A DNA stretch of 64,000 nt from NCBI GenBank assembly GCA_026770705.1, contig JANJGN010000034.1, forward strand, positions 6,076,001 through 6,140,000, read 5' to 3'. This document shows, piece after piece, positions 1 through 64,000 of the stretch. Position 1 is the first letter of the stretch; the number at the start of each line of letters is the position of its first letter. The position numbers and the translations under genes are program-made. This DNA comes from Isurus oxyrinchus. Lineage: Eukaryota. The notes under the pieces are model-generated. The model had not been told where the DNA came from and made no database searches. It saw nothing but the letters and a program-made list of their open reading frames with translations.

Positions 1-346
1 CTACTACTGTTTCTATTTTAATGTATATAACTGCGTAGAGATAGTTAACTAAATTCATGACTGAAACAGCAGCCGAGTAAGCAAAAAATGTTATCTCTGC
101 AATTAGTTACAATGATTGGCAAATTGATCTGTCATTTGAATACAACCAGATGAACTGACATAACTCTGCTCATTCCAACTGGACTGGTGGGAGAATTGTA
201 AAATTCATTGCCCATCCAAGTTGTCATTGCGGCGTTAATTTATGGACCCTTTTCTGCACAAAGCCCGATGTAATAATTTCATTTTTATCCTATTAAACAT
301 TGTGTGTCATTGGACAAAAATGTGTTCATACTTTAATTTTCCTTAG

Positions 347-373
347 AACTCTATGACCTGCAGCAAAAGTGCA
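347..373 (+). CDS. Microexon e1, copy 1 (27 nt): ELYDLQQKC
   Basis: ttttccttag|AACTC...GTGCA|gtaagt; first residue assumes an upstream exon ending in G, as in copies 2 and 3. Confidence 0.85.
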
Positions 374-3300
374 GTAAGTATTAGCTACTGCGCTGATTTA
401 CTATTTTTTTCTGCTAAGATATTTCGACTTCCTGAGCATGTATGTTTGTGCTGGTCTCCCGTTGTAATTCAGGAATCGTGGGCTAAAAATCCCCCAAGTA
501 GCATCTCCGAAACAATTTTACAAAGTTTCACATTCGGAAGTTCTTGCATTAAGTTCAAGAAGTTACTCAGTTTGCAGTCCGACATAGTTCAATGCTTTGC
601 CAAAAGTTGAAATCTTCTCCATGCAAATCCGCTGTTACTTCATGGAAACAGCTTCTGCAATTGAATCGTTTATTGTAAATCATTAAGAGATTTTCTGAGA
701 GACATGAAACATGATGTGATTTTGACGCCCCTCGTCCTTTAAATTGCAATGCTGAAGTACAGTTATTTTGCAGATACAGGGGTAGACTGGCAAGTCGCGG
801 GATTCGTCAGCTGCCTCCCACAATGCACTCGCTCAATTTGCAGTTTATTTATACTCGACGTGATTGACACTGCAGAGATTTTAGAACACGACCCTACCAA
901 AAAACGCGTCCCATTTAAATGTCGCCTCTGTGCTGGCCGTGGTTGGACAAGAATAGAAAGTGATCTGCAACTTGGTGGGGTAAATTTAGAGACGGACATT
1001 TTACATTTCTAGGCTTACATTTGCATAGCTGTATACAGATCGTAGAAAGTAGCTTCCTGCTGGTTTCATTTATCCCACCTGAACTTTTGCTTGGATATCT
1101 TGAATGTACAATTCTGACAACAAAAATAGAGTAATAGAGCCATCGGATAAAATGCAATAAGCATTAAAAGTCCTATCAGAACTGAGAAGGTTTTGAAGTT
1201 CTTAACAGTCGGCATAGTGAGTAGTATTACACTCATGACAGCGGGTGGGAAGGTGTCGTAAACTGACAATTAATATGATAGTCCGTAACAGATCAAGAAT
1301 GGGTTACATAAATGCAACTTCACTTATTGAGTGGCTCAAACATGAATTTTCTCACTGCAGGGAACAGTCGCGCCTGATAACATATACACATGTAAAGGGA
1401 GAAAGACGCACAGAAACATAAAAACCGAATTATTCATTGGGTAATTAGAGACTGGCAGAAGGAGTCTCTTCTGATTCCTTAACACTGATATCGTGGACTT
1501 GAGCTGACAGTCCTGCTTATTTAGTGTTACTAATTCTACGTAAATCTAGAACGCATCAATTGAAGAAATGTTATCCCTTTTAGCACCTTTTTGTTACTCA
1601 CACTCACTGCGATACCACCCCTTCTTACCCCAGCACACCTCTCTAAATTCAAAACTCTTCCTGGCCGGACAGGGGAGTGCCAATTGGTCCTTGCTTGATG
1701 GCCCTGCCCAAAAGTACGCATTACATGGACTGTCATAACTTGCCCTGCCGCGATTGAAATAATCTACTACTAATGAATATAACAACTCAGCCACAGTATG
1801 CACTCTAGTAGCGTCATGTGTCAATAAAAGGCCGGCGGGTGAACTATTCCTGTTACTCTTGCAGAAGCTGATCTCGACCAAAAAGATGAGGGTAAAGTAC
1901 AACATCAAACGTGCAGTATTTCGTTTCCATTGCATTTACTATTTGCCGCACGTTAGGGAAGTAGTTGAATTTAATGACAGCGGACTCAGTGTCCAGAAGA
2001 CTGACTTGTTGCCTGTGAGGTTGTTGCAACATAATTCTGGATCAGATGCCTCAGCATAAAACTTCAGCTAACACTCCGAGTGAACATGTACATGGCGATA
2101 CAGCCTATTCGAATGTTGAAACTTTCAGCTGAATTATTAAACTGCAATCGTTCAACTGCCCTCTGGCATTGTCATAAGCAGTGAAAAGCCAAAATATCCG
2201 GAATATAAAATAACATGAAATGAATTGGCCACCTGTTGTCTTAGCTCTGTATACCTCTGAGAATCATTGCAAGGAGATTGTGGGTGTAATATCACTTTCA
2301 GGTTTTTCGGAGCTTGCTCTCTGTAAAATAACTCTTGTGTTTTCTGTATTATTAGTTGAATACATTTCCAAACGTGGGCCAGGCGATGTCACATGTCCTG
2401 AAAATGTGACGGGAACCACAACAATTGTCACACACACCTGAAATGAAACAAGAATGGTTGATGTGCCAGAATGACAACAGTAATGACAACGTAATTGAGG
2501 AAAAGTCTGAGCGAACATGCTGATATTTAATTGCTTAAATGACATTCCACTTGTTTATTTTACAAAAAATCAAGAATTCGCCAAGACAATTGGAGAATTA
2601 GGTGAGTAATGGAAAACAAGATGTGGAAATATTGCTGGTTAATCGGGTTCATTCTGCAATTTTACTTGTTTTCCTCATGGCAAATGGGAGGACTTGACAA
2701 AGGTTAACAGGAAATCTAGTCCTACGTTAAGTACTTTCATGTCACTATCAATGTCAGAGAAGGGGCCAGCGGTGCAAATCATGGTGATGTCATGTAGAAG
2801 TCAGATTAACCCTGTGTGTGATCAGATATGATCAACTCGTATATGGTGAGAACAAGTATTAGTGCCAGTCAGTTTGTGTGGGAGTTCGATTTTGAGGATG
2901 TGTGGAGAGTACGGTGTTGTATATCGGTAAGCTTAGATGTGTTTGAGGGTGGGTGATACTGATCTATGTCAGAAATAATTTAGATCTGGAGTTTATCGAT
3001 GGGGCTTTGCTGAAATGAAATATGCCCTTCAACATGTGTTTGGTCAGCTCTTTCTGGGGTCAAGTTTTTTTTGGTGACTTTTATTTGAGAGCTGTCTGTG
3101 CCAAAAAGGCACTCCTTTGTTGCCTATCCTAACTGCCTTTGAAATGGCAGTCTTGCAATACATAACCACAGCCAATTACAGGTGATATGCTTCCCTGAAC
3201 TGAAAGGGCGGAATTGTTTATAAGTCCCATTACGGAGAGGAGGTTTCAATTCCTGAATAATTATTTGAATTTAAATTCGACAAACTGCCATGCTCGAAAC

Positions 3301-6300
3301 CATGTCTCAGTGCATTTCTCCAATGAGAATAAAAAATTAGCAGACGCTGTTTCAAACTAATGCATCTTCCAGTTAAGACAGAGTTTTTCCTTCACTGGGT
3401 CGTTAATACTGCACGTGCATACCGCAGTGGACAGTGCAGGCTGCGGCATTGAATAATTTATCTGCTGCAACCAGTGAGGCAATTAATTCTTATGAGGATG
3501 ATAATGATATAAAAACAAAAAAAGAACCTCTGTGGTTGGGAATCAGACATGAAACAAAAAATGTTGGTAAAACATAGCCGGTCTGGCAGCATCTGTGGAG
3601 AGAGAAAGGGGGTTAACTTTTCAGAGGCCATACAGCTCTTCTTCACTCCTGGTTATGGAGGGAATTCAGGGAAGTGGATTTATGGCACTACCAGATTAGT
3701 TATATTCTTGTGGAATTGGGGGGAAGGTTAGAGGGGCCAAATGGCCTACTTCTGCTATATTTTGTTATGTTTTTACGTTGTTACGAGCCGACATCATTAT
3801 TTGTCCTTTGTCAAAAATGCACATAGACAAAGTGTGCACCAGTTCCACTGGTTTGAGAATTTTTAATACGAGTTCCAATCACAAGAATCTCAGAGTTGTA
3901 CTCACTTATCCAGACTGCTGAAAACACTGTTTTCTTTTGGGGGGAAAAAAACAGTAAATGAAGGGTAAAGAGCTTAATGTTTACTTCTGTTAGGATAACA
4001 GTAACAGGAGCGACCCGTCAATGACCAACAGCAAATGGAAGAGAGAGTTGTAACCTTTGCTGTGGGATGTCTGATACCGAATGGCAGATCACTTTTTTTT
4101 TGCTCAGTGACATGGCATATCCTATAACTTTTCTATTGCTTTTATTCCCTTTACCGATTCACAGAAAATGTAAAGAAGGGTATGTATACGTATGTTACAG
4201 AAACTCAACTTGCCCAAAAAATCATCCCTGGTGGAATCGGCCCAAATTTCCGTCGAGTATCTTGCGTGATGTCGAATATAGAGTTATTTAAATTTTTCAC
4301 GACCATCTGTGACACCCCGCTCCCCTCTGTGTAACCTTCCACGGCTCAAAAATCATTTGACTCCACCTTATTTGCTTCCTTAATTTCCGATTTAGTATTT
4401 TCCCAGTCCACACCTCTACACATTTAGAAAATTCCCTAAAAACTGTGCCTTAGAGTGGTCAGACTTGATTCCTTTCATAACATCTCTCAACATGTTCGTT
4501 TTGGTTCTGTTACTATTTGTTCCATACCGATGTATGTTTCTGCCTTCTTCGTCGTTGTCGTTGAGTAAAAGTATATTATCCTCTTCAGCCAAATCCGTGG
4601 ATGGCTCATATTGCATTAAGGTCCCAAGGAGACTTTGCAGTGGAGCAAACATGAGCCAGGATGTGACCTCTTCCAAAAGCGTAACTTTTTAAGAGAACCT
4701 GGAAGGCTGATAAAACATACATCTAATGGACTTAAAGAGTCATGCTGTTTCTCTCCCCCTTGCAGAGCTAGGCACCTGCCAAGATAGCGTAAAAGATTTA
4801 GGTGAGCCAATCAGTTTTGATGCCTGCTAAATTTCCCGGCCGTTTGCTTTACTCTTAAATCAAGCAAAGGTACAAGTGTTTGTAAAGCACAACGGAGAAA
4901 GAATGATCCTTTAACTTTAATGCGTTTTTTTTAAAGATGGTGAACTTTAACGCAATGACAGATTTGCTCTGTATGGATAGCTGAAATGTCAATCAAAGTG
5001 CTATAGTGCAAAGCTCGGTCAGAAGTTTGGCAAGTGTCTTTATGGATTGTTCATTCTTCAAAATGTTTGACGTTGATCAAATCATGGATAAAAGATGGCC
5101 TGCGCTGTAGCACGAGTTGCTGGCTTTCAATTGACAGACTGATGTCAGGTTACGTGCGTATTCAGTTGCGCTGACTACAAGACGTTAAATATTTGCGGTG
5201 GCTATATAATCTTCACTCTCTATGACATCACACATTTTTCCTGGCTACCCAAAATTGAAATTCATCGTGTAGAGCTTGGTTAATGTGAATGGTTTACCCA
5301 TATGGTACCGATTCAGCACTCACCATCACATTTCACCAATTTTAATTGTTGTTGGCTTCAAGATAAAAAAAAGAAAAGACCTGGACCTTTTTCACGGAAA
5401 GGACAATGAAAAGAACGATTACATGACCTTAGGAATGTCGCTTAATTTACATTATTTCCTTGCTCCATGGTGTGCATTTCTCCCTGATTGCACCACTGCG
5501 AGGTAAAGAGGGAAACTTCACTATTTATTCTTGTTTGCACAATAAGAAAGGTAGCTAGTTGCCATCTAGCAGTGAATAAACGGCTGTTGTGATCTTTCCA
5601 TTCGCTGTTCCAACAAATTTTCACTGTATTCCACGTGATCAAGGAGAGTTATGTTTGCCCTGTACTGTCAGCCGCATGCAGAATGGCTTGATTTTCAGTG
5701 AAAACCTTTCCGCGGGAGGTCATGCTTTGTTCATTTTGTTATTTATTCTTGATTTTCTTCACAGATAAATTAAAAAAAGGTAAGTGGAAACATGCTCAAG
5801 CACCTCACAGTCTACATGGGTGAAAAAGAAGATAAGGAAAGATGTAATCGCTTGGATTACACATTCCAATTTAAAGTAACTTTTAAATTGTCATTATTAA
5901 ATCTAATTTCCTCTGTGGCCTCTCCCTTCCATATTGCCTTGTGAATCCTCGGGCATTACAACTGGCTGCAAGTTTTATGTTCCCAACGCACTGGCCTCTT
6001 TCTGATTGTGCTGTTCCTTTGCCTTACCAATGGCGTTTTATGCCTTCTGCAATATGTCCCAAGGCTCCAAAGCATGTTCGCTAAATCTTGCACCTCAAAC
6101 TCTCCTTCCACCTATAAAAATCACATATTTCCTGGGCGTTTTCCAAAGTCCAAGCCTCGTCCTCACCCCGGATTCTGGCCAATAATTATACTTTTTTTCA
6201 AAACATGTTGAAATGAAATGAGGTTTCTTACGCCCTGTAGCAGTTCGGTCACTAAGAAGGCCTGCTAGGAACCTTCGAAATGCTCAGCAGACGGTGAGCT

Positions 6301-9300
6301 GGCTCACATGTCCTCAGAACAAACAATGGAATACCTGGCATCTTGAACAACTCAATGGCTATTCTGGTGAACGAAGACTGCAACAGGGCCAAACCTCCAA
6401 ACGTTTCAGTTTTCTGCCATTGGACCGAGGTGTCATTCAGGCGTGGAATATGTGAGCAAAGGTCATAAACATTTGCCCAAACAAGCATCGCTCTTTCCGA
6501 GCACATCTACTATGCCATCAGGTGTCCAGTGAATGATGGACGGAGCATTGTTGTGTTGTATCAAAACGATCACTTGAAATATGCCTGCACTGCATTTGGT
6601 CAATTGAGAAAGCGAGCATTCGAAGGTTGCAACAACAAAACTGATAGGAAGCTCATGATTTGTTTTTTGTGCCTGATTTCCACGTTACTCTAATGGGCTG
6701 CAATACGCAAAACGTACAGGAGAAAGATCAGGGCACTAGGTTCATACCATTAAAAGTGGCTGCGAAAGAAATTGCATCTTATTGGGAGCGCAGACAGGCG
6801 GACACTGTCAGCTGCCATGTAGCAGACTCCCAAAGCAGTTATTGTTCTGCAAGAGGAGCGAGAGCAGTCGCACCAGATGAGGGCAGAGGACGCTCTTAAG
6901 GGATGTGCTGAAAAGCAACATGAAGAAAATTAATTATTCACATGGATATCTTGGTGAACACCATTTATAGATTAAAACAAACGGCACTAGGCCCTATTGT
7001 AAGGATCCCAGCATTTTGAACACAACCAATTATAGAATGATTCGGAAAAGCAGGAGGGCCCAAAGGAAAACAGCATGACTCGAATTAATGATACACGACC
7101 TGACACATAACAACGCTTGGTTGCATGATGTCTGCAGTCACGAATCTGCTTTATCAGCCATCTTATTGAAGAGAATCGTCCTCCTGCTGAGGCGTAGCCA
7201 GTAATAACAATATCTCTAAGCAATTAATCACTTGTCCCAAAGTGGCCAAATGTTGCATTTTATCTACACTGTTTGCGTGGAAACAATTTTGGTCTTTTCC
7301 TGGATTAAGTCAGTATATATTTGCTAATTGCACGTTCCTGTCAACAGTACCTACGATCTAAACCCGCAAAGTTTCTGCCGACAACACTGAGGAAAAGTTG
7401 CTCATAGGATGACTACTTGCGGGTTCTAACAGTAAAGTTAACCATGTAGGAGAAAACCATGTTTCCCAAAGAGAAATTAAACATTTGTAACATAATCAAA
7501 GATTATGGCTTGTCGTAGATTGGTTACAGCACAGAAAGAGGACATCGGGACCTTCGCATCAGAGGTGGAAGTTTGGGTGAAAATCTCGGCTGTTCCCATG
7601 CTCCAGACCTTCAGGCCAACACAAGCAACGATAATGCTATTCAAATAACTACACACCTCCCTATTAAAATCCACGATTGTCCCTTCACAGAGCTCATTCT
7701 TACACACTGCTTTTAAGAACCTAATGATGCGCTGCACATTTACATTTCCCATTGTCCCCATTGGTTCTCTTTCAATTGACGTTAAATCAATATCTTCCAG
7801 TTCTTGACCATTCCAAATGGGAACATTTTATCGCTGCCAAACATGTCAAGGCCCCAGTGGTGAATTTGAGAAGCCCCATCATATCTCCTTTCAATCAAGT
7901 TGTATTTCTGTGGAACTGCGCTAAATTCTCCAAACTTTCCTCCTAGAGGAAACAATCATCTCTGGAAGGATTCCCATGAATACACTTTCTACTCTCTCTA
8001 ACGTCTTCACTTCTCCCTAAACTATGATGTCCAATATGTGATGCAATTACCTAGTGAAGTCGAACTAATGGTTAAACAGGTTTACCATATTCATCTATTT
8101 ATAAAGATGAGGATTTCATCTGGCTAACTGACAGCATTTTCAATCTGCCCTGCATCTTGCAACCATTTGTCCTCTTATACTCCCAAAGCCCCATCAGCAG
8201 CTTCAATCCCCTTTGGAATGTTATCACAAGTTGTTCATTACCTCCTACTACCAAAATAAATCACGTCATACCTCTCTCTATTAACTTGACCTGCAATAGT
8301 TCCTCCAGTTCCACCCTTCCATCTGCGTCCATTTCATGTATTTCACCATCTTCCATGCAATTCTTAGCCCTGTAAAATCTGAAAACTGAAAATCTGAAAG
8401 TTTTGCCCTGGATATTCATGTTTAGGTCCTTGATGCATACCATGTACATTGATTGGAAGTGGGAAACTACGTAGTTTTTGTCGACACTTAAGTGCGGATC
8501 ATCCATTTTATGAATTACAGAGCTAAGCGACTGTCAACAAGCTGTAAAAGACCTAGGTGAGCAAAACATTCCCGATGTCGCTTTCAATAACATGCCTTAT
8601 TATTTTGAATCATTAAAGAAATACGTTTATAATCTTTAAAAATTGAAGTCATCAAGTCAGGCACCTTTAGGCCCATATTCGCTTCTGTTGATTTCAATAA
8701 AAGAAAATACCGGGCAGAAAGCAAAACAAGCCGACCATCCGATTGTGGGCAGGATGAATTTCCGATGCTCCATGAATCATGATTATTGGCGCTTTTTGTC
8801 AAGACTTTCTGCAATCCTGCACACTAACGGAATGATGAATATTGTTAACTTCATCGATTTTGTACCACTTTGGCAAATTGTTCTAACCAATAACGAAGCG
8901 TCTCCTACTCGTGAAAAATGTTGCTTAATCTTAAAATTTTTGGTTTGTTTATCATGTAATCCCAAACAGAAGAAAAACTCATTGCAAAAGAGAAAGGTAC
9001 CTGATCTGACATATTTTTTCTTCAAAAAGCCATAGATTGACAATGGCTGATTGCTTCTTCACATGATATCTTTTGTTTTCCTATGAATGTTTTATGTTAT
9101 TTTTTTGCTACGCAGATTGCTACAATGTAACCTAAGGGTTGGCAGCAGAAGATTCCCTTACAAGGGTTCCATAGTTTGAAGTTACAAGGGCACATCTTTG
9201 GATGCTGTGTCACACAAAGTTGGAAGACAATAAATAACTTGTGAACTTATTATGTGAATAAGGAATTGAGTTAATGCTCCAGCAAAAGGATAGTGGCACC

Positions 9301-14268: not shown

Positions 14269-14310
<42 letters not shown>

Positions 14311-44022: not shown

Positions 44023-44063
<41 letters not shown>

Positions 44064-53000: not shown

Positions 53001-56000
53001 AATATCCTCTCCACATCACCTCTGTGCATACCCTTCGGGATCTTTAATAATTTGATAAAGCCACCTCCTACACTCCTTAGCACAATTGAATACAAGTCTA
53101 TCCTGTCCAACCTTCCATCATAAGACAACCCGACAATTCCTGGGATTGGCCTAGTGGACCTTCTCTTAAGTGTTTCTAACGCATTTACACATTTCCCGAA
53201 ATAAGAAGGCCAATAGTGTCCATGGCACTCCAGATGTGCGCTCACCAGTGACCTATAGAAATGACGGATAAGCTCCCCGCTTTTGAGACAATTCCCATCC
53301 CAATGAAAGATACAATTCTACAGCTTTCTTAACTGATTGCTATTCCTGCATACTAGCCTTTTGTGGTTCGTACATTAAGACACCTAGTTCCTCCCGAATT
53401 TCAGAGTTTTGCAACTTCTCACCATTATTATAATATGCTTCTTTTCCATTATCCCTGCCAAAAAGGACAAATTTGCCTTTTCCTACTTTATAATCCATTT
53501 GCCTGTTCTTTGCAAAGTCACTTACCTATCAATATTGCTTTATAGCCTCCTTACGTACCACCCCCATAACTTAGCTGTGGAGACAGTTGGAGACATTCAA
53601 CTGCTTTCGATTTAACATTGCCTCTGCTCTACACACACAAAACTGCTCAAGTTATTCCTAGCATCGTTCATTGCATGTACTTTCTTACTGAATCACCAGG
53701 CTCTTTGAAGTCCAACATTTAACAATAAAACACCTTTCATAGAATGAGTTGTATTACGAATATAGACATATTGCTAGCTGTCTGCTGGCTAGGTGGTAGT
53801 TTTCACCTCACTTCTTGAATACACCATCAAAGAATGATATTAAAGGCTACTTACATAACATAACTAGTACACAGCAAAGCGTCCACACTAGCAGGCTTTA
53901 ACCAATTAAGACACACCCACAAACTAAACCTCTATTTTAAAAGATTTTTTTTCCAATAATAACGTTTATATTAATAAGTTCATGACAGTCACGTCATTGG
54001 ACACATGCTGCAGTTGAGGCAGAACGAATGTTTTATAATAATTTATTGCAGCATCTTTGATTTCGTTCTCAATGCCTTTTTAAAAATTATTTTCTTTTTC
54101 TTTAAAAAATCATCAATATTTCTGGCCGTTTAAATGATATTTTCACATATATGCCAATATTGCTACGTTGCTCTGAAATTTTGATTTGTTACACTTTCGA
54201 TTTTGTTACATTCAATTGCTCTGCCGAACAAAATGTGTCACCTCATGCCTTTTTCTTCTGAAATAGAATTCATCTGCAATATGCCTCTCCCTGCCCCGAG
54301 TTGTACTCTGGCGAACAGGTGGAGTTGAAGAACACAAATCTAAAAAAAAAGGATAAACAGAACATGAATGGAACTCATATTAAAATTGAGGTAAAACGCA
54401 TGCACAGTAATGTGAAATAGTACAAGGCAGCTTTAGGCCGTCAGTCGTGGGGCGGAATCAGGCATAGTCAGGATTACTGAGTCATGCCTACTGGGCATCA
54501 ACCTTGTAGTGTATGCTTTATGTCGAAAGGATAGAGTGGGGCCAAATGCTATCTATATTAACTGTGCGTTTTTGAGATTACATTCTATTTTGAAAGAAGA
54601 TACTGCTATCAATAGCAGACATTTTGCATATTTATAGTTGGAAATAAAAGATAACAAATGTTCTGTGACACAACCATAACCCGTCTGAAGTCCACTTCGT
54701 GCTGTGGAAATGGGGTGAGAAAAATGTTGACAAACAAGGCAACTGAGTTCAGGAAAATAAAATAACAATTTGAAAAGATTGAATTGTCTTAATAATAATT
54801 AAACAGAAGAGTTGCTAAAGGAAGAAGAATTTAGAATTACTACAAAGTGCAGGTCGCCCTTTTCTCGCCAACTACCTGAAAGAAACAAGCCAGTAAGGAT
54901 TTTGTGTCGAACTTTTAATGAGGAATTGAACCAGGATAAAGAGGGTCGTTTGAAAAAAGAAATACGAGAAACCAGCTCGGCATTAATTACTGTAATTATA
55001 TTTAAGATGGTGACAGGGAAGGTCATAATTATATCAAAAGCGAGGTTTTAAGGCTGGAGATCACGTAATTTTTATGGGGTCTTTTAGAACTTCTGAAAAT
55101 GACATAAGCAACACATTTGTGAAGAGCAATTTGGAAGGACAATGGGAAACTAAAAAAAAAAATCAACAGAACGCAGGGGTATATATTCAGCAAGAAGGAG
55201 AGAGTAAATCAAACATTTGTGAGACATGAATTTTGCATGAAGACAAAAGAAAACAACAGTCAATTAGGAAAGAGAAATATGGTAATTACATAAAGAGCAT
55301 AACATGCATAAGAGACAATATCAGGAAACTAGGAGGATGGCCGAAAAAGCAGTTAAGATGTCAAAGCGAAGCCATAAAATCATATTATTAACTTTCATAA
55401 AACCAATAAAATATTTTACAGGCTCTTCAAGAAAAAAGGCTGCGATGGGGATAGTGTGATTAAAAAATAGAAAAAAAAATGTAACAAGTAACAAAGGAAA
55501 TATGAATGTACAAGTTAGGAGAATGATTAGGCCCCTCGATTTCGTTCCAAATTTCAATAGGATGATGATAAATATGGCTGTGTCCTCAAGTACACATTCT
55601 CACCTATCCATGAAATCCTTTCAGCCAGTTGTTCGTCAAAGATCTGTCTACCTCTTTCCTGAAAAGCTAATAATCAACCTCCCTGCTTCCAGCATTCGCT
55701 GGTGGAGAGAGATTGAAATACAAACAATGGTCTAAGATGGAAGCACAAAATCTTCCCATGTCCGCCTCAAACTGGAAACACTTTTTAATATTGGCGTTAA
55801 CACAGAATGGTGAGAGGAGAAATGGTTTGGATGTGTTTAAAATACTTCAATCGACCGAACAACAACAGACGATATAAGCCCTGACCCGATGCATGGCAAC
55901 TACAAACTTTAAAAGATTTTGAAGAGGATACATAAAGTGGAAATATTATGCATATTTCATAGCTTGTAAGGAAAAGCTGTAACACCGGAATTCTCGTGGA

Positions 56001-59000
56001 AATTGTTTGTAATTTCCATATTCAAGAAAGGGCCAAAACATCTTCTTGTAATTATCTTCTTAAAATATGGGCTGGAAAATAATGGAATAGCTATTCAATA
56101 ATGTAATAGAAGAACAACTATCATGGTTAATAAGATTCACACACGCAGACACACAGAGAAACCCATATAACATGCCCATACATATGTGTGAACACATGGG
56201 TGGAAATAATGGCGGTGCAGTGTCCAGTTTTTCAAATGCTCTTGAATAAGCTTTTCCAGTGTGCATCAATGAATTAGATGCGATAATGTGGAGTCAGGAG
56301 ACAAGAGACGGGATGGAATGCTTCACTGGCTTCAAGTTGTAAAACAGAGACTGAGAGTAAAGGTGGGTTACTCAGAGTGGCAGAAGGTGAACGTGGTTCT
56401 GCACAATGATTTTTGCTGCCTCTATTGCTATTTAGTATTCCTTTTAACAACTTTGATTGTGGAGTCAGAAACTCCATTTGTAAATTTGTGGCGTTCAGTA
56501 AAATGGGGAGAATGTCAAAACAGAGGTGCATTACAACAAATTGATGAAGACATTGTTAAGCTTCGAGAAAGGCCGAACAATTGAAAATGAAGTCGAATAC
56601 AGATTTGTGTAAGGCATTACGTTTTGATAGGAAGTAAACTTGTTTTTTGTTCTGAAACGTGAACGTCTAGCCAAGATTCAGGAAATTAGGGGTCCCGGTC
56701 TACAAAAGCAGCAATCCCTAAAAGATTCGTCGCTGGTGAGAAAGTTCACAAAAACAGAACAAACACGATACTTAGTTTCTGCAGGGATGTAATTTCAGGT
56801 GCTGAAATACATCGGGAATTCCGCAAAAACTCGTCTTTACCGAAATGAATAGCATTGACGCATTCATGGGGAAGCTACATAAACATATCAGAGAAGATGA
56901 TAGTGGCTTCCAATGATAAATTTAGGAGAGGAAATATAGAAGGAATTTCAAGTGAAGCTTTAGCGCTTGATGGACTGAGATATCTCTTTCTGTGTTGTAC
57001 ATCCTAATCATAACTGCAGTAAATTAAATAACCTAATTCATATTTAAACAAGGCAGATGAATCTACTACTGTTTCTATATGTAATGTATATAACTGTGTA
57101 GAGTTAGGTAAATAAATTAATGACTGAAATTGCAGCTCGGCAAACAAAGAAAGTTATCTCTGCAAAAAGTTAAAATTGTTGGCAATTTGTTCCGTAATTT
57201 GAATAAAACCAGATGAACTGACATAATCCTACTCTTTCCAACGGGACTGCTGGGAGAATTGAAAAATACATCGCCCATCTAATGTGTCATTGCAGCGCTA
57301 ATTTATAGAGCCTTTCTGCACAAAGCCCGATGTAATTATTTCACTTTTATCCAGTTAAACATTGTGTTATGTCGGAAAAAAATGTCTTCATGTTTTACTT
57401 TTCCTTAGAGCTCTATGACCTACAGCAAAAGTGCAGTAAGTATTGGCTCCTGCGGTGATTTATTATTTATTTCTGCCGAGTTATTTCAACTTCCTGAGCA
57501 TGTATTTTTGTGCTGGCCTCCCGTTGTAATTCTGGAATCGTGGGCTAAAAATCCCCCAAGAACCATCTCCGAAGCAATTGTACCAAGTTTCACTTTCGGA
57601 AGTTCTTGCACTGAGTTCAAGATGTTACTCGGTTTACAGATCGACAGAGGCCAATGCTTTGCCAAAAGTTGAAATCTTCTCCGTTCAAATCCGCTGTTAC
57701 ATCATCGAAACAGCTGCTGTAATTGAAACATTTACTGTAAATCTCCAAGAGATTTTATGAGAGATGTTAAACATGCTGTGCAATTGAATCCCGTCTTCCT
57801 TTAAATTGGAATGCTGAAGTACAGTTGTTTTGCAGATACAGGGGTTCAGTGGCAAGATGCTGGATTCCTCCCCCGCCTCCCACGATGCACTTGCTCAACT
57901 TGCAGATTATTTATACTCGACGTGATTGAACCTGCAGACATTTTAGACGACTAACCTACAACAAACACGTCCCATTTAAATGAGAACTCTGTGTTGGCCC
58001 TTGCAGGACAAGCATAGAAAGGGATCAGTGACTTGGCGGGTTAAATTTGGAGATGGAGATTTAATTTTTGAAGACGTACATTTGCATTGCCGTATAAATA
58101 GGAAGGCAGATCGTAAAAAGCAGATTCCTGCTTATTTCATTTATCCCACCTGACCTATTGCAAGGATGTCTTGAATGTACACTTCTGGTGACATAAATAG
58201 AGTAACAGAGCTATCGGAGAAAATGCAATAAGCATTAAAATTCCTATCAGAACTGAAACGGTTTTGATGTTCTTACGAGTCGGCATAGTGAATATTATTG
58301 CACTCATGGTATTGGATGAGAAGGGGCGTAAACAGTGAATGTATATGATAGTCCGTAACAGATCAAATATGGGTTACATAAATGCACCTTCACTTATTGA
58401 GTGGCTCAAACATGAATTTTCTCATTGCAGGCAACAGTCGTGCCTGATAACATACACACATGTAAAGGGAGAATGACGCACAGAAACATATAAACCAAAT
58501 TATTCATAGGGATAGAGACTGGCAGAAGGATGCTCATCTGATACCTTAACACTGATATTGTGGAATTGAACTGACCGTCCTGCTTATTTATTGTTACTAA
58601 TTCCACGTAACTCTAGAACCAAAAAAAGCAGAAATGTTATCCCTTTTAGCAACGTTTTGTCACTCCCACTCACTCCGACACAACCGCCCATCACCCCAAC
58701 CCTCCTCCCTTAACCCTAATGTGGTCCTGGACACAAGTCTCTTCAGGGCCTGAAAGAGGAGTGCCAATTGCTCCATGCTTAAAGGTCCTGCCCAAAAATA
58801 CGCATTACTTGGACTTTCATAACTCACCCTGCAGCGATTGAAATCATCTTCTACTAATGAATATAACAACTCAGCCACAGTATGCGCTCCACTAGTGTCT
58901 GTAACAGGCCAATGGTTTAACTATTCATGTAATTCTTACAGAAGCTGATCTCGACCAAAAAGAAGAGGGTAACGTACAATCATCAAACGTGCTGTATTTC

Positions 59001-62000
59001 GTTTCAATTGTATTTCCTATTGGCCGCATGTAAGGGAAATAGTTGCACTTAATGACAGTGGACACAGTGTCCAGAACACTCACTTGTTACTTGGGAGGTT
59101 GTTGCAACCTAGTTCTGCATATGAGGCCTCAGCATGAAACTTCTGCTACCACTCCGCGTGAATGTTTACATGGCTATACTGCCCAGTCAAATATTGAAAC
59201 TTTCAGGTGAAGTATTAAACTGTAATCATTCAACTATACTATAGCATTGCTATAAGCAGCGGACTGCCAATATATCCCCAAAATAAAATAACTGTGTCTT
59301 AGCACTGTGTTCCTCGGAAGAACCATTGCAAGGAAATTATCGGTATAATATCGCTTTCAGTCTTTTCGGAGCTCGCTCTGTGTAAAATAACTTGCATTTT
59401 CTGTATTATTAGCTGGAATGCATTTCCAAATGTGGGTCAGGCAAAGTTGCATGTCCTGAGAATGTGACGGGCACCACAACAATTGTCACACACACCTGAA
59501 ATGAAGCAAGAATGGTTGATGTGCCAGCATGCCAACAGTAATGACAACGTAACTGAGGCGACTTCTGAGGGGAAATAGTGATATTTGATTGCTAAAATGA
59601 CATTCCACTTGTTTATTTTGCAAAATTGACAGAGTTCGCAAAGAAAATTGGAGAACTAGGTGAGTAATGGAAAAAAAGATGTGAAAACATTGCTTGTTTT
59701 TGGGGTTCACTTGAAATTTTGCTTGCTTTCCTCATGGCAAATGGAATGTTTAGACAAAGGTTAATAGGAAACCAAGTCCAACGTTAAGTACCTTCATGTC
59801 ACAATCAATATCAGAGAAAGGGCCAGCGGTTCCAATCCTGGCGATGTCAGATTAACCCGTTGTGAGATCAGATATTATCAACTCGTGTATGCTGAGAACA
59901 AGTCTTAGTGCCACTCGGTTTGTGTGGGAGGTCTGTTTTGAGGATGGGTGGAGAGTGCGGTGTTATCCCTTGATAATCTTAGATTTGTTTGATTGTGAGT
60001 GCTACTGATCTAAGTCAGAAATAAATTATATCTGTTTGTGATCGATCGGGCTTTGCTGAAATGTAATATGCTTTTCAACATGTGTGTGTGGTCAGCTCTT
60101 TCCGGGGTTAAGTTTTATTTTGATTACTTTCTCATGAGATGTGGGCGTGGCGCCTAAAAGTCCCTTCTTTCTTGCCTATCCTAATTGCTTTTGAAATGGC
60201 CCTCTTGCAATACATAAACATTGCCAATTAGAGGAGATATGCTTCCCTGAACTGAAACGGCAGAATTGATTCTATGTCCCATTGCCTGGAGGAGCTTTCA
60301 ATTCCTGATTAATTAATTGAACTTAAATTCTACAAACTGCCATGCTTGAACCCATGTCTCAGAGCTTAGCTCGAAGGAGAATCAAAATTTAGCAGACGCA
60401 CTTTCAAAATAATGTATCTTCCAGTAAAGACAGAGTTTTTCTTTCACTGAATCGTTAATACTGCAAGTCAATACTGCAGGGGACAGTGCAGGCTGTGGCA
60501 TCTTAACCTACGAGGCAATTAATTCCTATGGGGATGATAATGAAGTAAAAACAAAAAAGAACTGCTGAGGTTGGGAATCAGACATGAAACAGAAAATGCT
60601 GGTAAAACATAGCCGGTCTGGGAGCATCTGTGGAGAGAGAAAGGGGGGCTAAGTTTTGAATCCATACGGCTCTTTTTCACAGCTAGTTATGGTGTTAATT
60701 CAGGGAAGGGGATTTAAGGCACAACCAGATTAGTTATATTCTTGTGGAATGAAGGGGAAGATTAGAGGGGCCAAAAGGCCTAATTCTGCTATATTTTCTT
60801 ATGTTTTTACGTTGTTAAGGAGTGACATCACCATTTGTCCTTTGTCAAAAATACACCTCGACAAAATCTGTACCAGCTCCATTGGATTGATAATTATGAA
60901 TACCTAGTTCCAATCACAAGAATCTCAGTGTTTTACTCGCTTATCCAGACTGCTGAAAACACTGTATTATTCAGGGTGAACAAAGCACAGTACATGAAGA
61001 GTAAAGACCTTAAACTTTACTTTTGTTAGGATAACAATAATAGGAGCGACCAGTCATTGATCAACAGTAAAAGGAATAGAGAGTTGTAAAGTTTGCTTTG
61101 GGATGTCTGATACCGAATTGCAGATCACTTTTTTATGCTGAGTGACATTGCACATCTGATAACTTTTCTATTGCTTATAATTCTTTTACCGATTCACAGA
61201 AAATATAAACAAGAGTAAGTATACGTATGTTACAGAAACTCAACTTTAATGCAAGATAAATAGCTTGCCCTAAAATTTCATCCCTTTTGGAATCGGGCCA
61301 ATATCCCGTCGAGTATCTTGCCTGATGTCGAATATAGTGTTATTTCCATTTTTCACGTCCCTTTGTGACATCCCCCTTCCCCATCTGTGTAACATTCCAG
61401 AGCTCAAAAATCTTTTTTAATCCACGTAATTTGCTTCCCAAATTTCCGATTTGGCATTTTCCCAGTCCCCACCTCTACACGTTTAAGACACACCCTTAGA
61501 ACTGTGCCTCAGAGTGGTCAGTCTTGAAACTTTTCATAATATTTCTCAACCTGTTGCTGTGGTTCTGTTACTATTTGATCGAAACTGATGTATGTTTCTG
61601 CCTTCTTCGTTGTTATCTGTAAAAGTATATTATCCTCTTCAGCCAAATCCGAGGAAGGCTCATATCGCGTGAAGGCCCCCAGGAGACTTTGGAGTCGAGT
61701 AAACATGAGCCAGGATGTGACCTCTTCCAAAAGCGTAGCTTTTTAAGGGAACCTGGATGTCTGATAAAACACACACCTGATGGACTTAAAGATTCATATT
61801 GCTTCTGTCCATCTTGCAGAGTTAGGCACCTGCCAAGATACCATAAAAGATTTAGGTGAGCCAATCAGTTTTGATGTCTGCTGAATTTCCAGACCGTTTG
61901 TTTAATTCTTAAATCAAGCAAAGCTCCAAGTGTTTCTACAGCACAACGAGAAAGAACGATCCTGGAGCATTAATGTTTTTTTTTTAAATATGTTGAACTT

Positions 62001-62827
62001 TAAAGCAATGACAGATTTGTTGTGTATGGGGAGTAGAAATGTCAATCATTGTTTTTGTGCAAAGCTCGGTCAGAAGCTTGGCAATTGACTTTATGGATTT
62101 TTCATTGTTCAGAATGATTAACGTAGATCATCTCTTGGATAAAAAATGGCCTGCGTTGGAGCACCAGTTGCTGGCATTCAATAAACTGACTTATGTAGGG
62201 TCACGTGTGTATTCAGTTGCACTGACTACAATGGAATTACGTACTTGCGCTGGGTATATAATCTTCCCTCTCTACGAAATCGCACATTTTGCGTGGCTAC
62301 CACAAATTGAAATTCATCGTGCAGAGCCTGGTTAATGTGAATGGTTGATGTATATGATATGGAATCAGCACTCGCCGTCACATTTTGCCAGTTTCAATTG
62401 TTGTTGGCTTTAAGATAAAAAAAAAGACCTTGATCCTTTTCATGGAAAGGTTGATCAAAAGAACGATTATGTAATCTTAGGAATGTGGCTTCATTTACGT
62501 TATCTCCTTGCTTCATGTTGTTCTTTTCCCGCCGATAGCGCCACTGCAAAGTGAAGAGGAAAACTTCACCATTCATTCTTGTTTGCGCAAAAAGAAAGGT
62601 AGCAGGTTGCCAGCTAGCAGCGAATAAATGGCTGTTGTAAACTTTCCATGAGCTGTTCCACACATTTTCAGTGTGTTCCACGTGCACAAGGAGATTTACG
62701 TTTGCTCTGCACTGTCGGCCAACTGCAGAACAGTTTGATTTTCAGTGAAATCTTTTCTGCGGTAGGTCAAGCATTCGTTCATTTTGTTATTTATTCTTGA
62801 TTTGTTTCACAGAGAAATTAAAAAAAG
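347..62827 (+). CDS. Interior of a large multi-microexon gene encoding a long Cys-containing coiled coil (34 exons, 927 coding nt, ~309 aa in window; both ends outside the window)
   Basis: 34 AG/GT-flanked segments of 15/27/36 nt, all phase 1-1, that join into an uninterrupted frame with a heptad pattern. Lengths and splice dinucleotides are conserved in all copies, while the flanks carry many indels. Confidence 0.85.
1865..1891 (+). CDS. Microexon e2, copy 1 (27 nt): KADLDQKDE
   Basis: ctcttgcag|AAGCT...TGAGG|gtaaag; only synonymous changes versus copy 2. Confidence 0.85.
2575..2601 (+). CDS. Microexon e3, copy 1 (27 nt; possibly ancestrally 36 nt from 2566): EFAKTIGEL
   Basis: caag|AATTC...ATTAG|gtgagt; acceptor position ambiguous. 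Confidence 0.7.
   Translation, partial: NSPRQLEN
3085..3330 (-). mobile_element. Degenerate tRNA-derived SINE with LINE-like tail (also ~32610-32850 and ~60135-60370)
   Basis: ttgcctatcctaactgcctttgaa ... ttgaatttaaattcgacaaactgccatgctcgaaaccatgtctcagtgcatt resembles the reverse complement of a common elasmobranch SINE (recalled). Confidence 0.5.
3380..3785 (+). mobile_element. CR1-type LINE 3' end, interrupted by a probable Penelope-like terminal fragment (~3510-3650); shared by all three copies
   Basis: gaggggccaaatggcctacttctgctatattttgttatgt is a CR1-type tail; ggtctggcagcatctgtggagagagaaag is a motif of a common shark repeat. Confidence 0.6.
4165..4179 (+). CDS. Microexon e4, copy 1 (15 nt): ENVKK
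   Basis: ttcacag|AAAATGTAAAGAAGG|gtatgt. Confidence 0.8.
4766..4801 (+). CDS. Microexon e5, copy 1 (36 nt): ELGTCQDSVKDL
   Basis: ctcccccttgcag|AGCTA...TTTAG|gtgagc. Confidence 0.9.
5765..5779 (+). CDS. Microexon e6, copy 1 (15 nt): DKLKK
   Basis: ttttcttcacag|ATAAATTAAAAAAAG|gtaagt. Confidence 0.85.
6500..7200 (+). mobile_element. Decayed RTE-clade LINE ORF2 C-terminal remnant (also ~36100-36760 and ~63600-64000)
   Basis: Copy 3 translates to AFGQLRKRAFE...KLMICYLGLIPTLL, matching the RTE post-RT pattern AFGRLRKRVF...TKL.VY...TLLY; frameshifted. Confidence 0.7.
7640..8450 (-). mobile_element. Decayed CR1 LINE fragment (also ~37270-38050)
   Basis: Copy 2 minus frame gives VKTLERVESVFMRMFPEI, similar to CR1 ALERVQRRFTRMIPG. 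Confidence 0.7.
8521..8556 (+). CDS. Microexon e7, copy 1 (36 nt): ELSDCQQAVKDL
   Basis: ttacag|AGCTA...CCTAG|gtgagc; paralog of e5. Confidence 0.85.
8970..8996 (+). CDS. Microexon e8, copy 1 (27 nt): EEKLIAKEK
   Basis: aaacag|AAGAA...GAAAG|gtacct. Confidence 0.8.
9385..9670 (+). mobile_element. Degenerate tRNA-headed SINE with RTE-like tail (also ~38995-39280)
   Basis: gccagaagctctgcattcaagtc is a B-box-like head; gaaagcaacctcaaatgactgccgtaatttgccaag resembles the RTE-related gaaggcaatggcaaaccactccagtattcttgcc motif. Confidence 0.45.
10556..10591 (+). CDS. Microexon e9, copy 1 (36 nt): EILTCHVSLKDS
   Basis: cattccag|AGATT...TTCAG|gtggga; paralog of e5/e7. Confidence 0.8.
11600..11626 (+). 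CDS. Microexon e10, copy 1 (27 nt): ETKLKGKEK
   Basis: ccttgacag|AAACA...AAAAG|gtagcc. Confidence 0.8.
12828..12854 (+). CDS. Microexon e11, copy 1 (27 nt): ELNDIQQKC
   Basis: ctttctgtcttag|AATTG...GTGCA|gtgagt; paralog of e1. Confidence 0.88.
13070..13360 (+). mobile_element. SacSINE1/DeuSINE-like SINE, 5' and central part (also ~42725-42990)
   Basis: cctctgatcagaaggttgcgaattcaagtcc...gctgacac...gtgcagtcctca...gatgtcctgg...ttaccccttaa follows the recalled SacSINE1 order of motifs. Confidence 0.6.
13880..14260 (+). mobile_element. CR1 LINE 3' end (also ~43520-43910)
   Basis: gttaaggtaattg...atgagggagata...cagcgagtg...gagagatccggcattggctcgatgtgtcgaatggtct matches the CR1 3' region. Confidence 0.65.
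14268..14590. repeat. Compound microsatellite (CT)n plus (GATA)n; the copy 2 equivalent at ~43918-44180 has (CT)n, (CTAT)n, (AT)n and (GATA)n
   Basis: Direct reading. Confidence 0.95.
15680..18345 (+). mobile_element. Decayed long CR1-group non-LTR retrotransposon (RT region, 3' tail with A-run)
   Basis: ORF 17094-17480 carries NYRPISIL...QLGFR...LDIKVEFGRFFH...KLESMGMRGRTLRW, i.e. RT motifs; many stops and frameshifts; ends gggatgggcaataaatg...aaaaaaaa. Confidence 0.9.
19575..19950 (+). mobile_element. SacSINE1/DeuSINE-like SINE body and 3' tail abutting exon e12 (also ~47735-48118)
   Basis: ttgcctgtgggagcc...tgtgtgaactggctgc...gctgcaaagcattctt...gtcatgacaggcgctgtcgaaacgcaaatttt resembles the Deu-domain and tail. 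Confidence 0.6.
19959..19985 (+). CDS. Microexon e12, copy 1 (27 nt): TEDLWDKDS
   Basis: tctctcttgcag|CAGAA...TTCAG|gtaaac; paralog of e2. Confidence 0.85.
20020..20190 (+). mobile_element. SINE 5' fragment with tRNA-like head (also ~48190-48360)
   Basis: tggctcagccggtaacactc...gtttcaa...ggctgacact...aagatgttaaa. Confidence 0.5.
20588..20623 (+). CDS. Microexon e13, copy 1 (36 nt): EINNLQTKVQKC
   Basis: cttcttttcag|AAATA...ATGCG|gtgagt. Confidence 0.88.
22474..22500 (+). CDS. Microexon e14, copy 1 (27 nt): EENLKAIEK
   Basis: ccttcgacag|AAGAG...AAAAG|gtactg; identical in copy 2. Confidence 0.85.
23250..23640 (-). mobile_element. L2-type LINE 3' end (also ~51360-51745)
   Basis: acaacttccacatatatagcacc ... 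gaggccatcgacggatttgtaacaa resembles the reverse complement of an L2 3' tail. Confidence 0.55.
24340..25500 (-). mobile_element. Two adjacent CR1 LINE 3' fragments (also ~52460-53560)
   Basis: Copy 2 ORF 52961-53245 AHLECHGHYWPSY...NALETLKRRSTRPIPGIVGLSYDGRLDRIDLYSI matches the CR1 ORF2 C-terminus. Confidence 0.8.
26900..29460 (+). mobile_element. Heavily decayed CR1 LINE with a nested minus-strand CR1 tail (~27940-28230); also ~54480-57010
   Basis: Copy 2 ORF 56288-56584 WLQVVKQRLRVKVGYSEWQKV resembles CR1 RT WL..RKQRV...YS.WQKV.SGVPQG; aattataggccagccatcat resembles NYRPVSL. Confidence 0.7.
29855..29881 (+). CDS. Microexon e1, copy 2: EFYDLQQKC
   Basis: ttttccttag|...|gtaagt, 27 nt. Confidence 0.85.
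31403..31429 (+). CDS. Microexon e2, copy 2: KADLDQKDE
   Basis: ctcttgcag|...|gtaaag, 27 nt. Confidence 0.85.
32115..32141 (+). CDS. Microexon e3, copy 2: EFTRKIAEL
   Basis: ctag|...|gtgagt, 27 nt. Confidence 0.7.
   Translation, partial: NSPGKLQN
33696..33710 (+). CDS. Microexon e4, copy 2: ENVKK
   Basis: ttcacag|...|gtatgt, 15 nt. Confidence 0.8.
34323..34358 (+). CDS. Microexon e5, copy 2: ELGTCQNTVKDL
   Basis: ccttgcag|...|gtgagc, 36 nt. Confidence 0.9.
35306..35320 (+). CDS. Microexon e6, copy 2: DKVKK
   Basis: tttcacag|...|gtaagt, 15 nt. Confidence 0.85.
38129..38164 (+). CDS. Microexon e7, copy 2: ELSNCQLSVKDL
   Basis: ttacag|...|gtgagc, 36 nt. Confidence 0.85.
38585..38611 (+). 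CDS. Microexon e8, copy 2: EEKLNAKEK
   Basis: gaacag|...|gtacct, 27 nt. Confidence 0.8.
40166..40201 (+). CDS. Microexon e9, copy 2: EILTCQVYLKDA
   Basis: attttag|...|gtggga, 36 nt; AG retained despite an indel just upstream. Confidence 0.8.
41204..41230 (+). CDS. Microexon e10, copy 2: ETKLKDKEK
   Basis: ccttcacag|...|gtagcc, 27 nt. Confidence 0.8.
42456..42482 (+). CDS. Microexon e11, copy 2: ELNDIDQKY
   Basis: ctgtcttag|...|gtgagt, 27 nt. Confidence 0.88.
45270..46520 (+). mobile_element. Same LINE in copy 2, lacking the RT region
   Basis: Colinear with 15680-16705, then jumps to ~18107 at ~46284. Confidence 0.85.
48126..48152 (+). CDS. Microexon e12, copy 2: KIDLWDKDS
   Basis: ctctcttgcag|...|gtaaac, 27 nt. 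Confidence 0.85.
48753..48788 (+). CDS. Microexon e13, copy 2: EINYLQIKLQKC
   Basis: cattttcag|...|gtgagt, 36 nt. Confidence 0.88.
50574..50600 (+). CDS. Microexon e14, copy 2: EENLKAIEK
   Basis: ccttcgacag|...|gtactg, 27 nt. Confidence 0.85.
57409..57435 (+). CDS. Microexon e1, copy 3: ELYDLQQKC
   Basis: ttttccttag|...|gtaagt, 27 nt. Confidence 0.85.
58942..58968 (+). CDS. Microexon e2, copy 3: KADLDQKEE
   Basis: ttcttacag|...|gtaacg, 27 nt. Confidence 0.82.
59633..59659 (+). CDS. Microexon e3, copy 3: EFAKKIGEL
   Basis: ttgacag|...|gtgagt, 27 nt. Confidence 0.72.
   Translation, partial: SSQRKLEN
61200..61214 (+). CDS. Microexon e4, copy 3: ENINK
   Basis: ttcacag|AAAATATAAACAAGA|gtaagt, 15 nt. 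Confidence 0.8.
61820..61855 (+). CDS. Microexon e5, copy 3: KLGTCQDTIKDL
   Basis: atcttgcag|...|gtgagc, 36 nt. Confidence 0.88.
62813..62827 (+). CDS. Microexon e6, copy 3: EKLKK
   Basis: tttcacag|...|gtaagt, 15 nt. Confidence 0.85.
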
Positions 62828-64000
62828 GTAAGTGGAAATATGCTCGAGCAACTGAACGCGTAAATGGGTGAAAAGAAACATGAGAAAAGATGGATTCGCA
62901 GTGATTACACATTCCAATTTAAAGTAACTTTTAAATTGTCATTGTTATATGTTAATCCCTCTATGGCCTCGATCTTCCATATTGCCTTGAGAATCCTCTG
63001 GCCTTACAATTGGCTGCAAGTTTTGTGTTCCCACCACGCTGGCCTCTTTCTGATCGCGCTGTTCCTTCACCTTACCAATGGCGACTTTCGGCTTCTGCAA
63101 TATGTCCCAAAACTCTGAATTATGTTTGCTAAATCTTGCACCTCATACTCTACTTCGTCCTTTAATATTCATATATTTGCTCTGTGGTTTCCAAAGTCCA
63201 TTCCTCGTCCTCACCCCGGATTCTGGCCAACAATTAAAGTTTTGTTCAAAACATGGTGAAATGCAGTGTGGTTCGTAACGCCCTGTGGCACTTCTGTTAT
63301 TGGGACGGCCTGCTAGGAACCTTAGAAATACTCAGTGGACGATGCGCTGGCTTACATGTCCTCAGAACAAACAGGGAAATACATGGCATCTGCAGCAACA
63401 CAATGGCTCTTCTGGCCAACAAAACTGCAATTGAACCAAACCTCCAAACGTTTTAGTTTCCTGCCATTGGACCGAGGTGTCGTTCTCTAAAGACAGGCGT
63501 GGAAGGTGGTGTGAAACGGTGTCTGCATCCTAACATTTTGCCCACACGGGCATCTTTCTTTCTGAGTACATCTACCATGACATCAGGTGTCCAGCGAATG
63601 ATGGAGGGCACATTGTTGTGTTGTATCAAAACGATCACTTGACGTATGCTTGCACTGCATTTGGTCAATTGAGAAAGCGAGCATTTGAAATTCGCAACAC
63701 CAAAACTGACAGGAAACTCATGATCTGTTATTTGGGCCTGATTCCCACCTTACTCTGCAAGGCCGAATCTTCAAGATTTAAAAGGTGCAGGAGGCACCTA
63801 AGGCACTTGGTTCATACAATTAAAAGTGGCTGCAAAATAAATTGCATATAAGTGGGAGGGCAGAGATGCGGACAATGTCAGCTCTCATTTATCAAACTCC
63901 CAAAATAGTTATTGTTCTCCAAGAGGACAGACGCACCAGAGGAGGGCGGAGGACGATCTTAAGGGATGAGCTGAAAAGCAACATGAAGAAAATGAATTAT

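Follow-up and report, generated by a model that had tools for sequence, protein, structure and literature searches.

What kind of gene is written in exons so short that 34 of them fill less than 1.5% of the DNA that holds them? The question is raised by a stretch of 64,000 nucleotides (nt) from the shark Isurus oxyrinchus (the window; contig JANJGN010000034.1 of assembly GCA_026770705.1, called C34 below, positions 6,076,001 to 6,140,000 of the forward strand), in which an initial annotation had described a hidden gene of symmetric 15-, 27- and 36-nt microexons encoding a very long coiled coil. We consider it probable (about 0.68) that the window lies inside a single 1.55-Mb gene, here gene A, for a soluble protein, a coiled-coil rod of great length that ends in a B30.2 (PRY/SPRY) domain. 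The exons lie on one strand, are of phase 1-1 and are under purifying selection, they keep a heptad register when joined in genomic order, and their series runs up to an intact B30.2 exon.

Microexons of the window and the array around it

All 34 AG/GT-flanked exons were re-found on the plus strand between positions 347 and 62827 of the window, where they total 927 nt (1.45%), and joined together they give 308 whole codons without a stop, in phase 1-1 throughout. The residues at the a and d positions across exons e7-e11 are exactly those claimed initially (L2, C5, V9, L12, L16, K19, I23, C26, L30, S33, L37, K40, L44), and the alternation of E-type with K-type exons can be seen by inspection. 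The splice sites are ordinary in 31 of the exons, but the other three, the copies of one exon position (slot c), have a weak internal AG as acceptor. In a splice-site scan, AG/GT-flanked candidates of 15, 27 and 36 nt were in excess on the plus strand of the window and not on the minus strand, and homology mapping across the tandem units described below gave 31 well-formed window exons. Weak acceptors occur in slots c, h and j, and that of slot h is conserved in 10/10 units. An Rfam scan of the window gave no match. The exons, in window coordinates, are as follows.

1..64000, plus strand: whole window, holding about 2.2 of the ten units of a tandem segmental array (C34 about 5.885-6.162 Mb)
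347..373, plus strand: slot a, unit 1, 27-nt microexon
1865..1891, plus strand: slot b, unit 1, 27-nt microexon
2575..2601, plus strand: slot c, unit 1, 27 nt with a weak internal AG as acceptor, left over from a 36-nt exon whose acceptor reads CAA; doubtful but constrained
4165..4179, plus strand: slot d, unit 1, 15-nt microexon
4766..4801, plus strand: slot e, unit 1, 36-nt microexon
5765..5779, plus strand: slot f, unit 1, 15-nt microexon
8521..8556, plus strand: slot g, unit 1, 36-nt microexon
8970..8996, plus strand: slot h, unit 1, 27-nt microexon, weak acceptor
10556..10591, plus strand: slot i, unit 1, 36-nt microexon
11600..11626, plus strand: slot j, unit 1, 27-nt microexon
12828..12854, plus strand: slot k, unit 1, 27-nt microexon
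19959..19985, plus strand: slot l, unit 1, 27-nt microexon
20588..20623, plus strand: slot m, unit 1, 36-nt microexon
22474..22500, plus strand: slot n, unit 1, 27-nt microexon
29855..29881, plus strand: slot a, unit 2
31403..31429, plus strand: slot b, unit 2
32115..32141, plus strand: slot c, unit 2, weak acceptor
33696..33710, plus strand: slot d, unit 2
34323..34358, plus strand: slot e, unit 2
35306..35320, plus strand: slot f, unit 2
38129..38164, plus strand: slot g, unit 2
38585..38611, plus strand: slot h, unit 2
40166..40201, plus strand: slot i, unit 2
41204..41230, plus strand: slot j, unit 2
42456..42482, plus strand: slot k, unit 2
48126..48152, plus strand: slot l, unit 2
48753..48788, plus strand: slot m, unit 2
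50574..50600, plus strand: slot n, unit 2
57409..57435, plus strand: slot a, unit 3
58942..58968, plus strand: slot b, unit 3
59633..59659, plus strand: slot c, unit 3, weak acceptor
61200..61214, plus strand: slot d, unit 3
61820..61855, plus strand: slot e, unit 3
62813..62827, plus strand: slot f, unit 3

The units of the array, which the initial annotation had not mentioned, are spaced 25.3-29.6 kb apart and are 80-87% identical; within the window, self-comparison gives offsets of 27.6-29.5 kb at 80-83% identity. The region of the first exon occurs in ten tandem copies at 5.91-6.16 Mb and in one further copy at 7.19 Mb of C34. Each of the 130 array exon copies (13 slots in 10 units) has retained its AG, its GT, its length and its open frame in phase 1; for 19,442 intronic control windows, by comparison, the survival rate is 50% per copy and 1.7% across all copies. 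The exon copies are 90.7% identical against 82.4% for the introns, the ratio of nonsynonymous to synonymous substitution (dN/dS) in the exons is 0.55 (bootstrap over slots, 0.43-0.72), and no stop occurs among 1080 phase-1 codons, whereas the two other frames have 145 and 70. Whichever two exons are paired, the codon at their junction is never a stop. The exon seeds were taken from one unit, the other nine being unselected, and since the copies share ancestry, the tiny probabilities that these counts imply are only rough. The exons of the window are real and under purifying selection. A dead gene, or an artefact of assembly, with repeats that are merely coding-like is extremely unlikely: such a reading can point to the lost acceptor of slot c and to expression not having been shown, but it has to account for 130 intact copies where half of the intronic controls fail per copy, and for B30.2 exons that are intact in all five paralogs on C34 (gene A and genes B to E, described below). 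False duplication is unlikely because the units, at 80-87% identity, are too distant.

An exon of 36 nt once occupied slot c (window 2566-2601 and its homologs), of which the last 27 nt remain; its old acceptor reads CAA in 9/9 aligned copies, and the same number of copies, as well as paralog B, retain the AG within the exon together with the donor GTGAGT. The copies are 86% identical with a dN/dS of about 1.1, and the heptad power of the array rises from 1.09 to 1.33 once the slot c exons are included. They are probably genuine, though not certainly so. The acceptor appears to have been lost by a change from CAG to CAA that preceded the expansion of the array, and the exon to have been rescued by the internal AG 9 nt downstream; slot c may be regarded as a natural exon shortening that was copied ten times.

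From a candidate start exon to a B30.2 exon

The microexon series continues beyond both edges of the window. The initial annotation had advised that terminal domains be sought in the flanking DNA, and downstream the series ends in a 27-nt exon followed by a phase-1 terminal exon at C34:6,395,819-6,396,339 (plus strand) that encodes a SPRY domain (E 1.8e-13; best PDB match the B30.2 domain of BTN3A1, E 4e-20). Upstream, microexons were traced to about 4.868 Mb, and a candidate start exon of 30 nt with an in-frame ATG lies at C34:4,846,528-557, 97% identical between paralogs A and B. From this candidate to the B30.2 exon gene A spans 1.55 Mb of the plus strand, and between 4.817 and 6.396 Mb there is no further B30.2 match among the matches listed. 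Paralog B provides a link between the distant parts: its 22-kb upstream block (6,433,690-6,455,835) matches A at 4,827,827-4,850,373 and then joins directly to the match of A from 5,091,193. Because the 5' block of B is directly followed by sequence found 241 kb farther along in A, these parts are tied to one gene. All exons would form one transcription unit starting near C34:4.8465 Mb.

The fully read 5' region of B (6.396-6.506 Mb) and the blocks of A that were read yielded no Ig, RING, B-box, signal or transmembrane exon; among these blocks of A, the 5' ones (4.819-4.901 and 5.036-5.104 Mb) were scanned for IgV/IgC motifs and hydrophobic exons. Hydrophobic ATG-donor candidates number 15 in A and 22 in B, with none common to both paralogs, and no hydrophobic exon is conserved between the two. 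A B-box-like stretch at 6,457,727 was rejected because it is intronic and lacks conservation in A. For larger internal exons, the read blocks of A offered a single candidate, a strong one in phase 1: it is 111 nt long (4,859,457-4,859,567), lies near the start of the gene, has proline, serine and acidic content, is absent from B and could be a non-helical head. A second internal duplication, of about 40 kb, lies in the 3' part of gene A (C34:6,272,455-6,334,504), with the exon pairs 6,272,455/6,312,978 and 6,282,651/6,323,206.

How many exons the gene has was estimated with an exon caller calibrated on strands, which made 221 calls on the plus and 7 on the minus strand over 660 kb and recovered 125 of 131 known exons. 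In the fully read 673 kb of gene A it called 243 exons; a further 42 came from blind sampling (25 samples, 134 kb in all), where 21 samples were positive and none gave a minus-strand call. The 285 exons called directly come from the 52% of the gene that was read, and extrapolation gives a total of about 516 exons (bootstrap, 438-602) and a product of about 4,900 amino acids (aa; 4,105-5,752), with the window holding about 6% of the estimated coding length. Exons of 21 nt are also present, at 5.08-5.29 Mb. Three splice-anchored patterns were run genome-wide: the first gave 10 matches, all in the C34 cluster and 8 of them training exons, the second placed 30 of its 36 matches on C34 with 27 for a reversed control, and the third gave 111 matches, mostly to an unrelated repeat. 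These patterns delimit the paralogs but are over-fitted and provide no validation of the exon estimate. Human titin, like gene A a giant multi-exon gene for a filamentous protein but unrelated to it, is credited with 363 exons (PMC11931755). A record exon count for gene A is an estimate, direct calls amounting to 285 exons. Spliced as a single unit, gene A would have more exons than titin while being 99% intron, and would put the spliceosome to an extreme test in defining hundreds of consecutive microexons over 1.5 Mb.

The predicted rod and the length of its transcripts

Joined in genomic order, the exons have a best local period of 3.48-3.52, that of a heptad repeat, which bears out the greatly extended coiled coil of phase-1 mini-exons proposed initially. 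The heptad power of the array is 1.09-1.33, compared to at most 0.57 in 100 shuffles of exon order and at most 0.29 in 100 shuffles of residues, and in the nonrepeated 3' part outside the array it is 0.71 against at most 0.51 in shuffles. Outside the array, pairs of 27+36 or 36+27 nt (21 aa, three heptads) dominate, making up 37 of 67 neighbours. The 212 exons called in a 549-kb block give 2,019 aa with no stop and only 2 prolines, rich in K, E and L and with 4.1% cysteine; this product has no hydrophobic 17-mer above 0.48, and glycosylation sequons are not enriched in it (4 vs 6.6).

An extended coiled coil rises 0.1485 nm per residue, and full inclusion of the exons would give a protein of about 5,000 aa and about 0.7 micrometres. 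We tentatively propose, at somewhat short of even odds, that some 500 exons are indeed spliced into one such rod tipped by a B30.2 domain, which would serve as a molecular ruler and change its length in evolution as blocks of exons are duplicated or deleted. Because each alternating 27+36-nt pair adds three heptads, duplication, block deletion or skipping would alter the length of the rod while keeping the frame, and rod length would be set by the number of symmetric exons present or included. The ten-unit array, the 241-kb block missing from paralog B and the 9-residue differences between isoforms of relatives (see below) fit this proposal, and the locus offers a testable case of protein length fixed by the count of symmetric exons. 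Since no signal peptide, membrane anchor, RING or B-box was found, the product is predicted to be a cytoplasmic, homo-oligomeric spacer or tether that would hold B30.2 tips at a set distance from a partner or the cytoskeleton. By analogy, it may be likened to a butyrophilin or BG tail freed from the membrane, rather than to a ubiquitin ligase or a surface receptor.

Several points weigh against a single giant soluble rod. Annotated relatives are much shorter, at 178-945 aa. The dN/dS of 0.55 is only moderate, and it is about 1 in slots g and c. A terminal exon, an internal promoter or an Ig or transmembrane exon could have escaped notice in the remaining 48% of gene A; the pattern scans added one new exon in this unread part, so the extrapolated density is not confirmed by them, and the B30.2 search scored 150 of 227 candidates. 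For the start exon there is no more than a conserved candidate, with another ATG-donor candidate at 4,844,604, 1.9 kb further upstream. The cysteine content of 4%, with many of these residues in the core, is what one might expect of an extracellular, disulfide-linked fibre, and the proposed function would follow from the architecture only. For the B30.2/3' region no RNA source was listed, and in four sets of putative RNA contigs compared with window 200-20100 the matches listed covered mainly repeats, most contigs falling on interspersed ones near 3560-3760 and 16600-18350, and included no GT-AG microexon joint. Neither observation bears on expression; no transcript was seen in the sets checked and a full-length mRNA is unproven. 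Since no RNA junction was seen, a single full-length transcript is something that we infer.

The transcript is also where the chief competing explanation departs from ours. The locus could serve as a menu from which each transcript, through alternative promoters or the skipping of units, takes a subset of exons to give proteins of hundreds of residues, and this has a real, if minority, chance of being correct. Every exon is of phase 1-1 and any pairing is open, the annotated relatives have 178-945 aa with skipped blocks of 6-9 residues, and several acceptors are weak (slots c, h and j). However, neighbours in genomic order keep the heptad register far better than a shuffled order does, the intactness of 130/130 copies would be unneeded for rarely used cassettes, and automatic annotation easily truncates microexon genes. 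This explanation overlaps with that of a single long rod and differs from it only in the length of the isoforms.

Relatives in cartilaginous fishes and paralogs on C34

To what family does gene A belong? The initial annotation expected a mis- or unannotated chondrichthyan protein, and the nearest named relatives are indeed all from cartilaginous fishes. The best single-domain matches of the B30.2 are to cartilaginous-fish proteins annotated as TRIM39-, TRIM58-, TRIM69-, A33- and BTN3A1-like, along with unnamed Logan fragments. In a B30.2 tree of 57 rows chosen from the match list, with midpoint rooting only and without the catshark protein XP_038671249 among the rows, the five domains from C34 fall together with ten rows, chondrichthyan or unnamed, on a branch of length 1.48 (100/100), separate from 25 TRIM rows and 7 Ig-bearing rows. 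No RING, B-box or Ig domain was found in the annotated relatives that were scanned.

One relative is XP_038671249 ("A33-like", 945 aa), which consists only of a 770-aa coiled coil and a SPRY domain, contains 12 units of 9+12 residues against at most 2 in 200 shuffles, has a maximum hydrophobicity of 0.53 and shares 65% identity with a family member on C21, elsewhere in the genome. The alignment search that gave this protein covered a range of 325-2000 aa, with larger models outside it, and at least one such member was among the best 120 of 7,998 scored. The stalks of skate and electric-ray relatives carry the 9+12 unit as well, above all 300 shuffles, and TRIM controls do not. Isoforms of annotated relatives differ by 9-residue blocks in 5/6 pairs, including a homolog of the last 27-nt exon. 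The models from catshark (XP_038671249 and XP_038668997, "TRIM39-like"), skate (XP_055510696, "TRIM69-like"), electric ray (XP_069797409) and chimaera (XP_042191566, "TRIM58") share with gene A the B30.2 clade, the 9+12-residue unit and the lack of RING, B-box and Ig domains, but they are automatic predictions of 178-945 aa under misleading names, whereas gene A has an estimated 516 exons or so. No long close relative was found among the best 150 matches of a representative search, and half of the SPRY domain compared with longer proteins found no homolog. Gene A has the B30.2 of this clade and units of 9 and 12 residues, with no other domain found, and by its sequence it is best placed as an extreme variant within an unnamed chondrichthyan clade of coiled-coil-plus-B30.2 proteins. 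An index-level literature search found no description of such a family, which annotation pipelines reduce to short, misnamed TRIM-like models; it would be chondrichthyan-wide (shark, skate, ray and chimaera) and a soluble counterpart of butyrophilin tails.

By their defining domains, gene A lies outside the butyrophilin, BG, TRIM and CD23 families, even though its tail operates as theirs do. The comparison with the CD23 stalk made initially fails because the exon series ends in SPRY and not in a C-type lectin domain, which CD23 and CD209 have at their C-terminus. The lead to BG and butyrophilins held in part: the last two exons of the series are indeed one of 27 nt and one for B30.2, but Ig and transmembrane exons were not found. 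Butyrophilins such as BTN3A1 and BTN1A1 resemble gene A in having phase-1 heptad mini-exons before a terminal B30.2, and BTN3A1 is the best PDB match; they differ in carrying Ig domains and a membrane anchor and in having few heptads, as described in PMC4046983. In gene A, 48% of whose interior is unread, we found neither a signal peptide with IgV(/IgC) exons nor a transmembrane exon, and its B30.2 does not group with Ig-bearing ones. The phosphoantigen-binding histidine of BTN3A1 aligns to a serine in gene A. Chicken BG shares with gene A a long coiled coil from many symmetric mini-exons; BG genes are described as having IgV and transmembrane regions and 13-36 exons of 21 nt (PMC4046983), their tails as coiled coils from a variable number of mini-exons with true heptads spanning two exons (PMC5938342), and a soluble tail, the zipper protein, as acting on actin-myosin (PMC4046983, PMC5938342). 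BG is without B30.2, whereas gene A has mostly 27- and 36-nt exons, more than 10 times as many, and a B30.2 end, and Ig or transmembrane exons were not found in it. TRIM proteins (TRIM39, TRIM21, finTRIM) likewise have a coiled coil followed by a C-terminal B30.2/SPRY, but in gene A RING and B-box were not found, the coiled coil is made of microexons and is not TRIM_CC, and the B30.2 is on a separate branch. The parts are thus known, heptad mini-exons as in BG and butyrophilin tails and a B30.2 domain. We know of no described gene that combines this scale with the absence of a membrane or ligase domain.

Two alternatives to a soluble spacer take these likenesses further. Gene A could encode a membrane receptor of butyrophilin/BG type, or a type II membrane protein, with its Ig and transmembrane exons missed and the coiled coil as a giant tail or neck. 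Heptad microexons, a 27-nt exon and a B30.2 exon are the layout of a butyrophilin tail, the best PDB matches are to BTN3A1, the exons at 5.08-5.29 Mb have 21 nt, and the unnamed matches P0067 and P0082, which are outside the tree, show an apparent hydrophobic N-terminal segment, a neck of lectin-like repeats and a B30.2, an unusual coiled-coil-plus-B30.2 build of another kind. We nonetheless consider this quite improbable, as no IgV/IgC motif or conserved hydrophobic exon was found in 6.396-6.506, 4.819-4.901 and 5.036-5.104 Mb, none of the annotated proteins of the clade that were scanned has Ig, the B30.2 clade stands apart from the Ig-bearing rows, and sequons are not enriched. A RING-less, TRIM-like innate sensor, with a B30.2 that recognizes a ligand from a pathogen or from self and a rod that multimerizes on this ligand, is likewise unlikely. 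B30.2 is the ligand domain of TRIM proteins, two family members sit inside a large B30.2 cluster on C21, and copy number and length vary quickly; on the other hand, RING, B-box and TRIM_CC were not found, the dN/dS of 0.45 between the B30.2 domains of A and B does not indicate diversification, and a 1.5-Mb gene takes many hours to transcribe, which suits an inducible sensor poorly.

The close B30.2 paralogs of gene A on C34 lie at 7.497 Mb (B, plus strand), 4.817 Mb (C, plus), 2.709 Mb (D, minus) and 3.474 Mb (E, minus), and PF00622 scores above its cut-off in 5/5. Paralog B (about 1.04 Mb, C34:6,433,690-7,496,962) is a tandem copy of gene A with introns about 77% identical and a B30.2 of 92% amino acid identity; it is without the 241-kb block of A, and its series starts with 21-nt exons. 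In samples of C, D and E, 9/12 were positive for like microexons, each only on the strand of its own gene. C (plus) spans from 4.10 Mb or below to 4.817 Mb, D (minus) 2.709 to at least 3.30 Mb and E (minus) 3.474 to at least 3.77 Mb, the last extended to that point by pattern matches. About 4.8 Mb of C34 is tiled by five such genes, which, if the giant-rod reading is true, would make up an undescribed shark cluster of megabase genes consisting almost wholly of 15-36-nt exons.

C21 carries two more B30.2 exons of the family, at 89.72 and 91.35 Mb, and a 36-nt phase-1 exon at 90,751,446-81, and one of its members is 93% identical to a basking-shark model. These members sit within a very large B30.2 cluster (82.9-118 Mb) that holds most of 149 B30.2 matches and is possibly where the family originated. 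Within the window itself, the long k-l intron carries TC and ATAG/ATAT microsatellites in both units (14270-14589 and 43990-44189), and interspersed repeats lie near 3560-3760 and 16600-18350.

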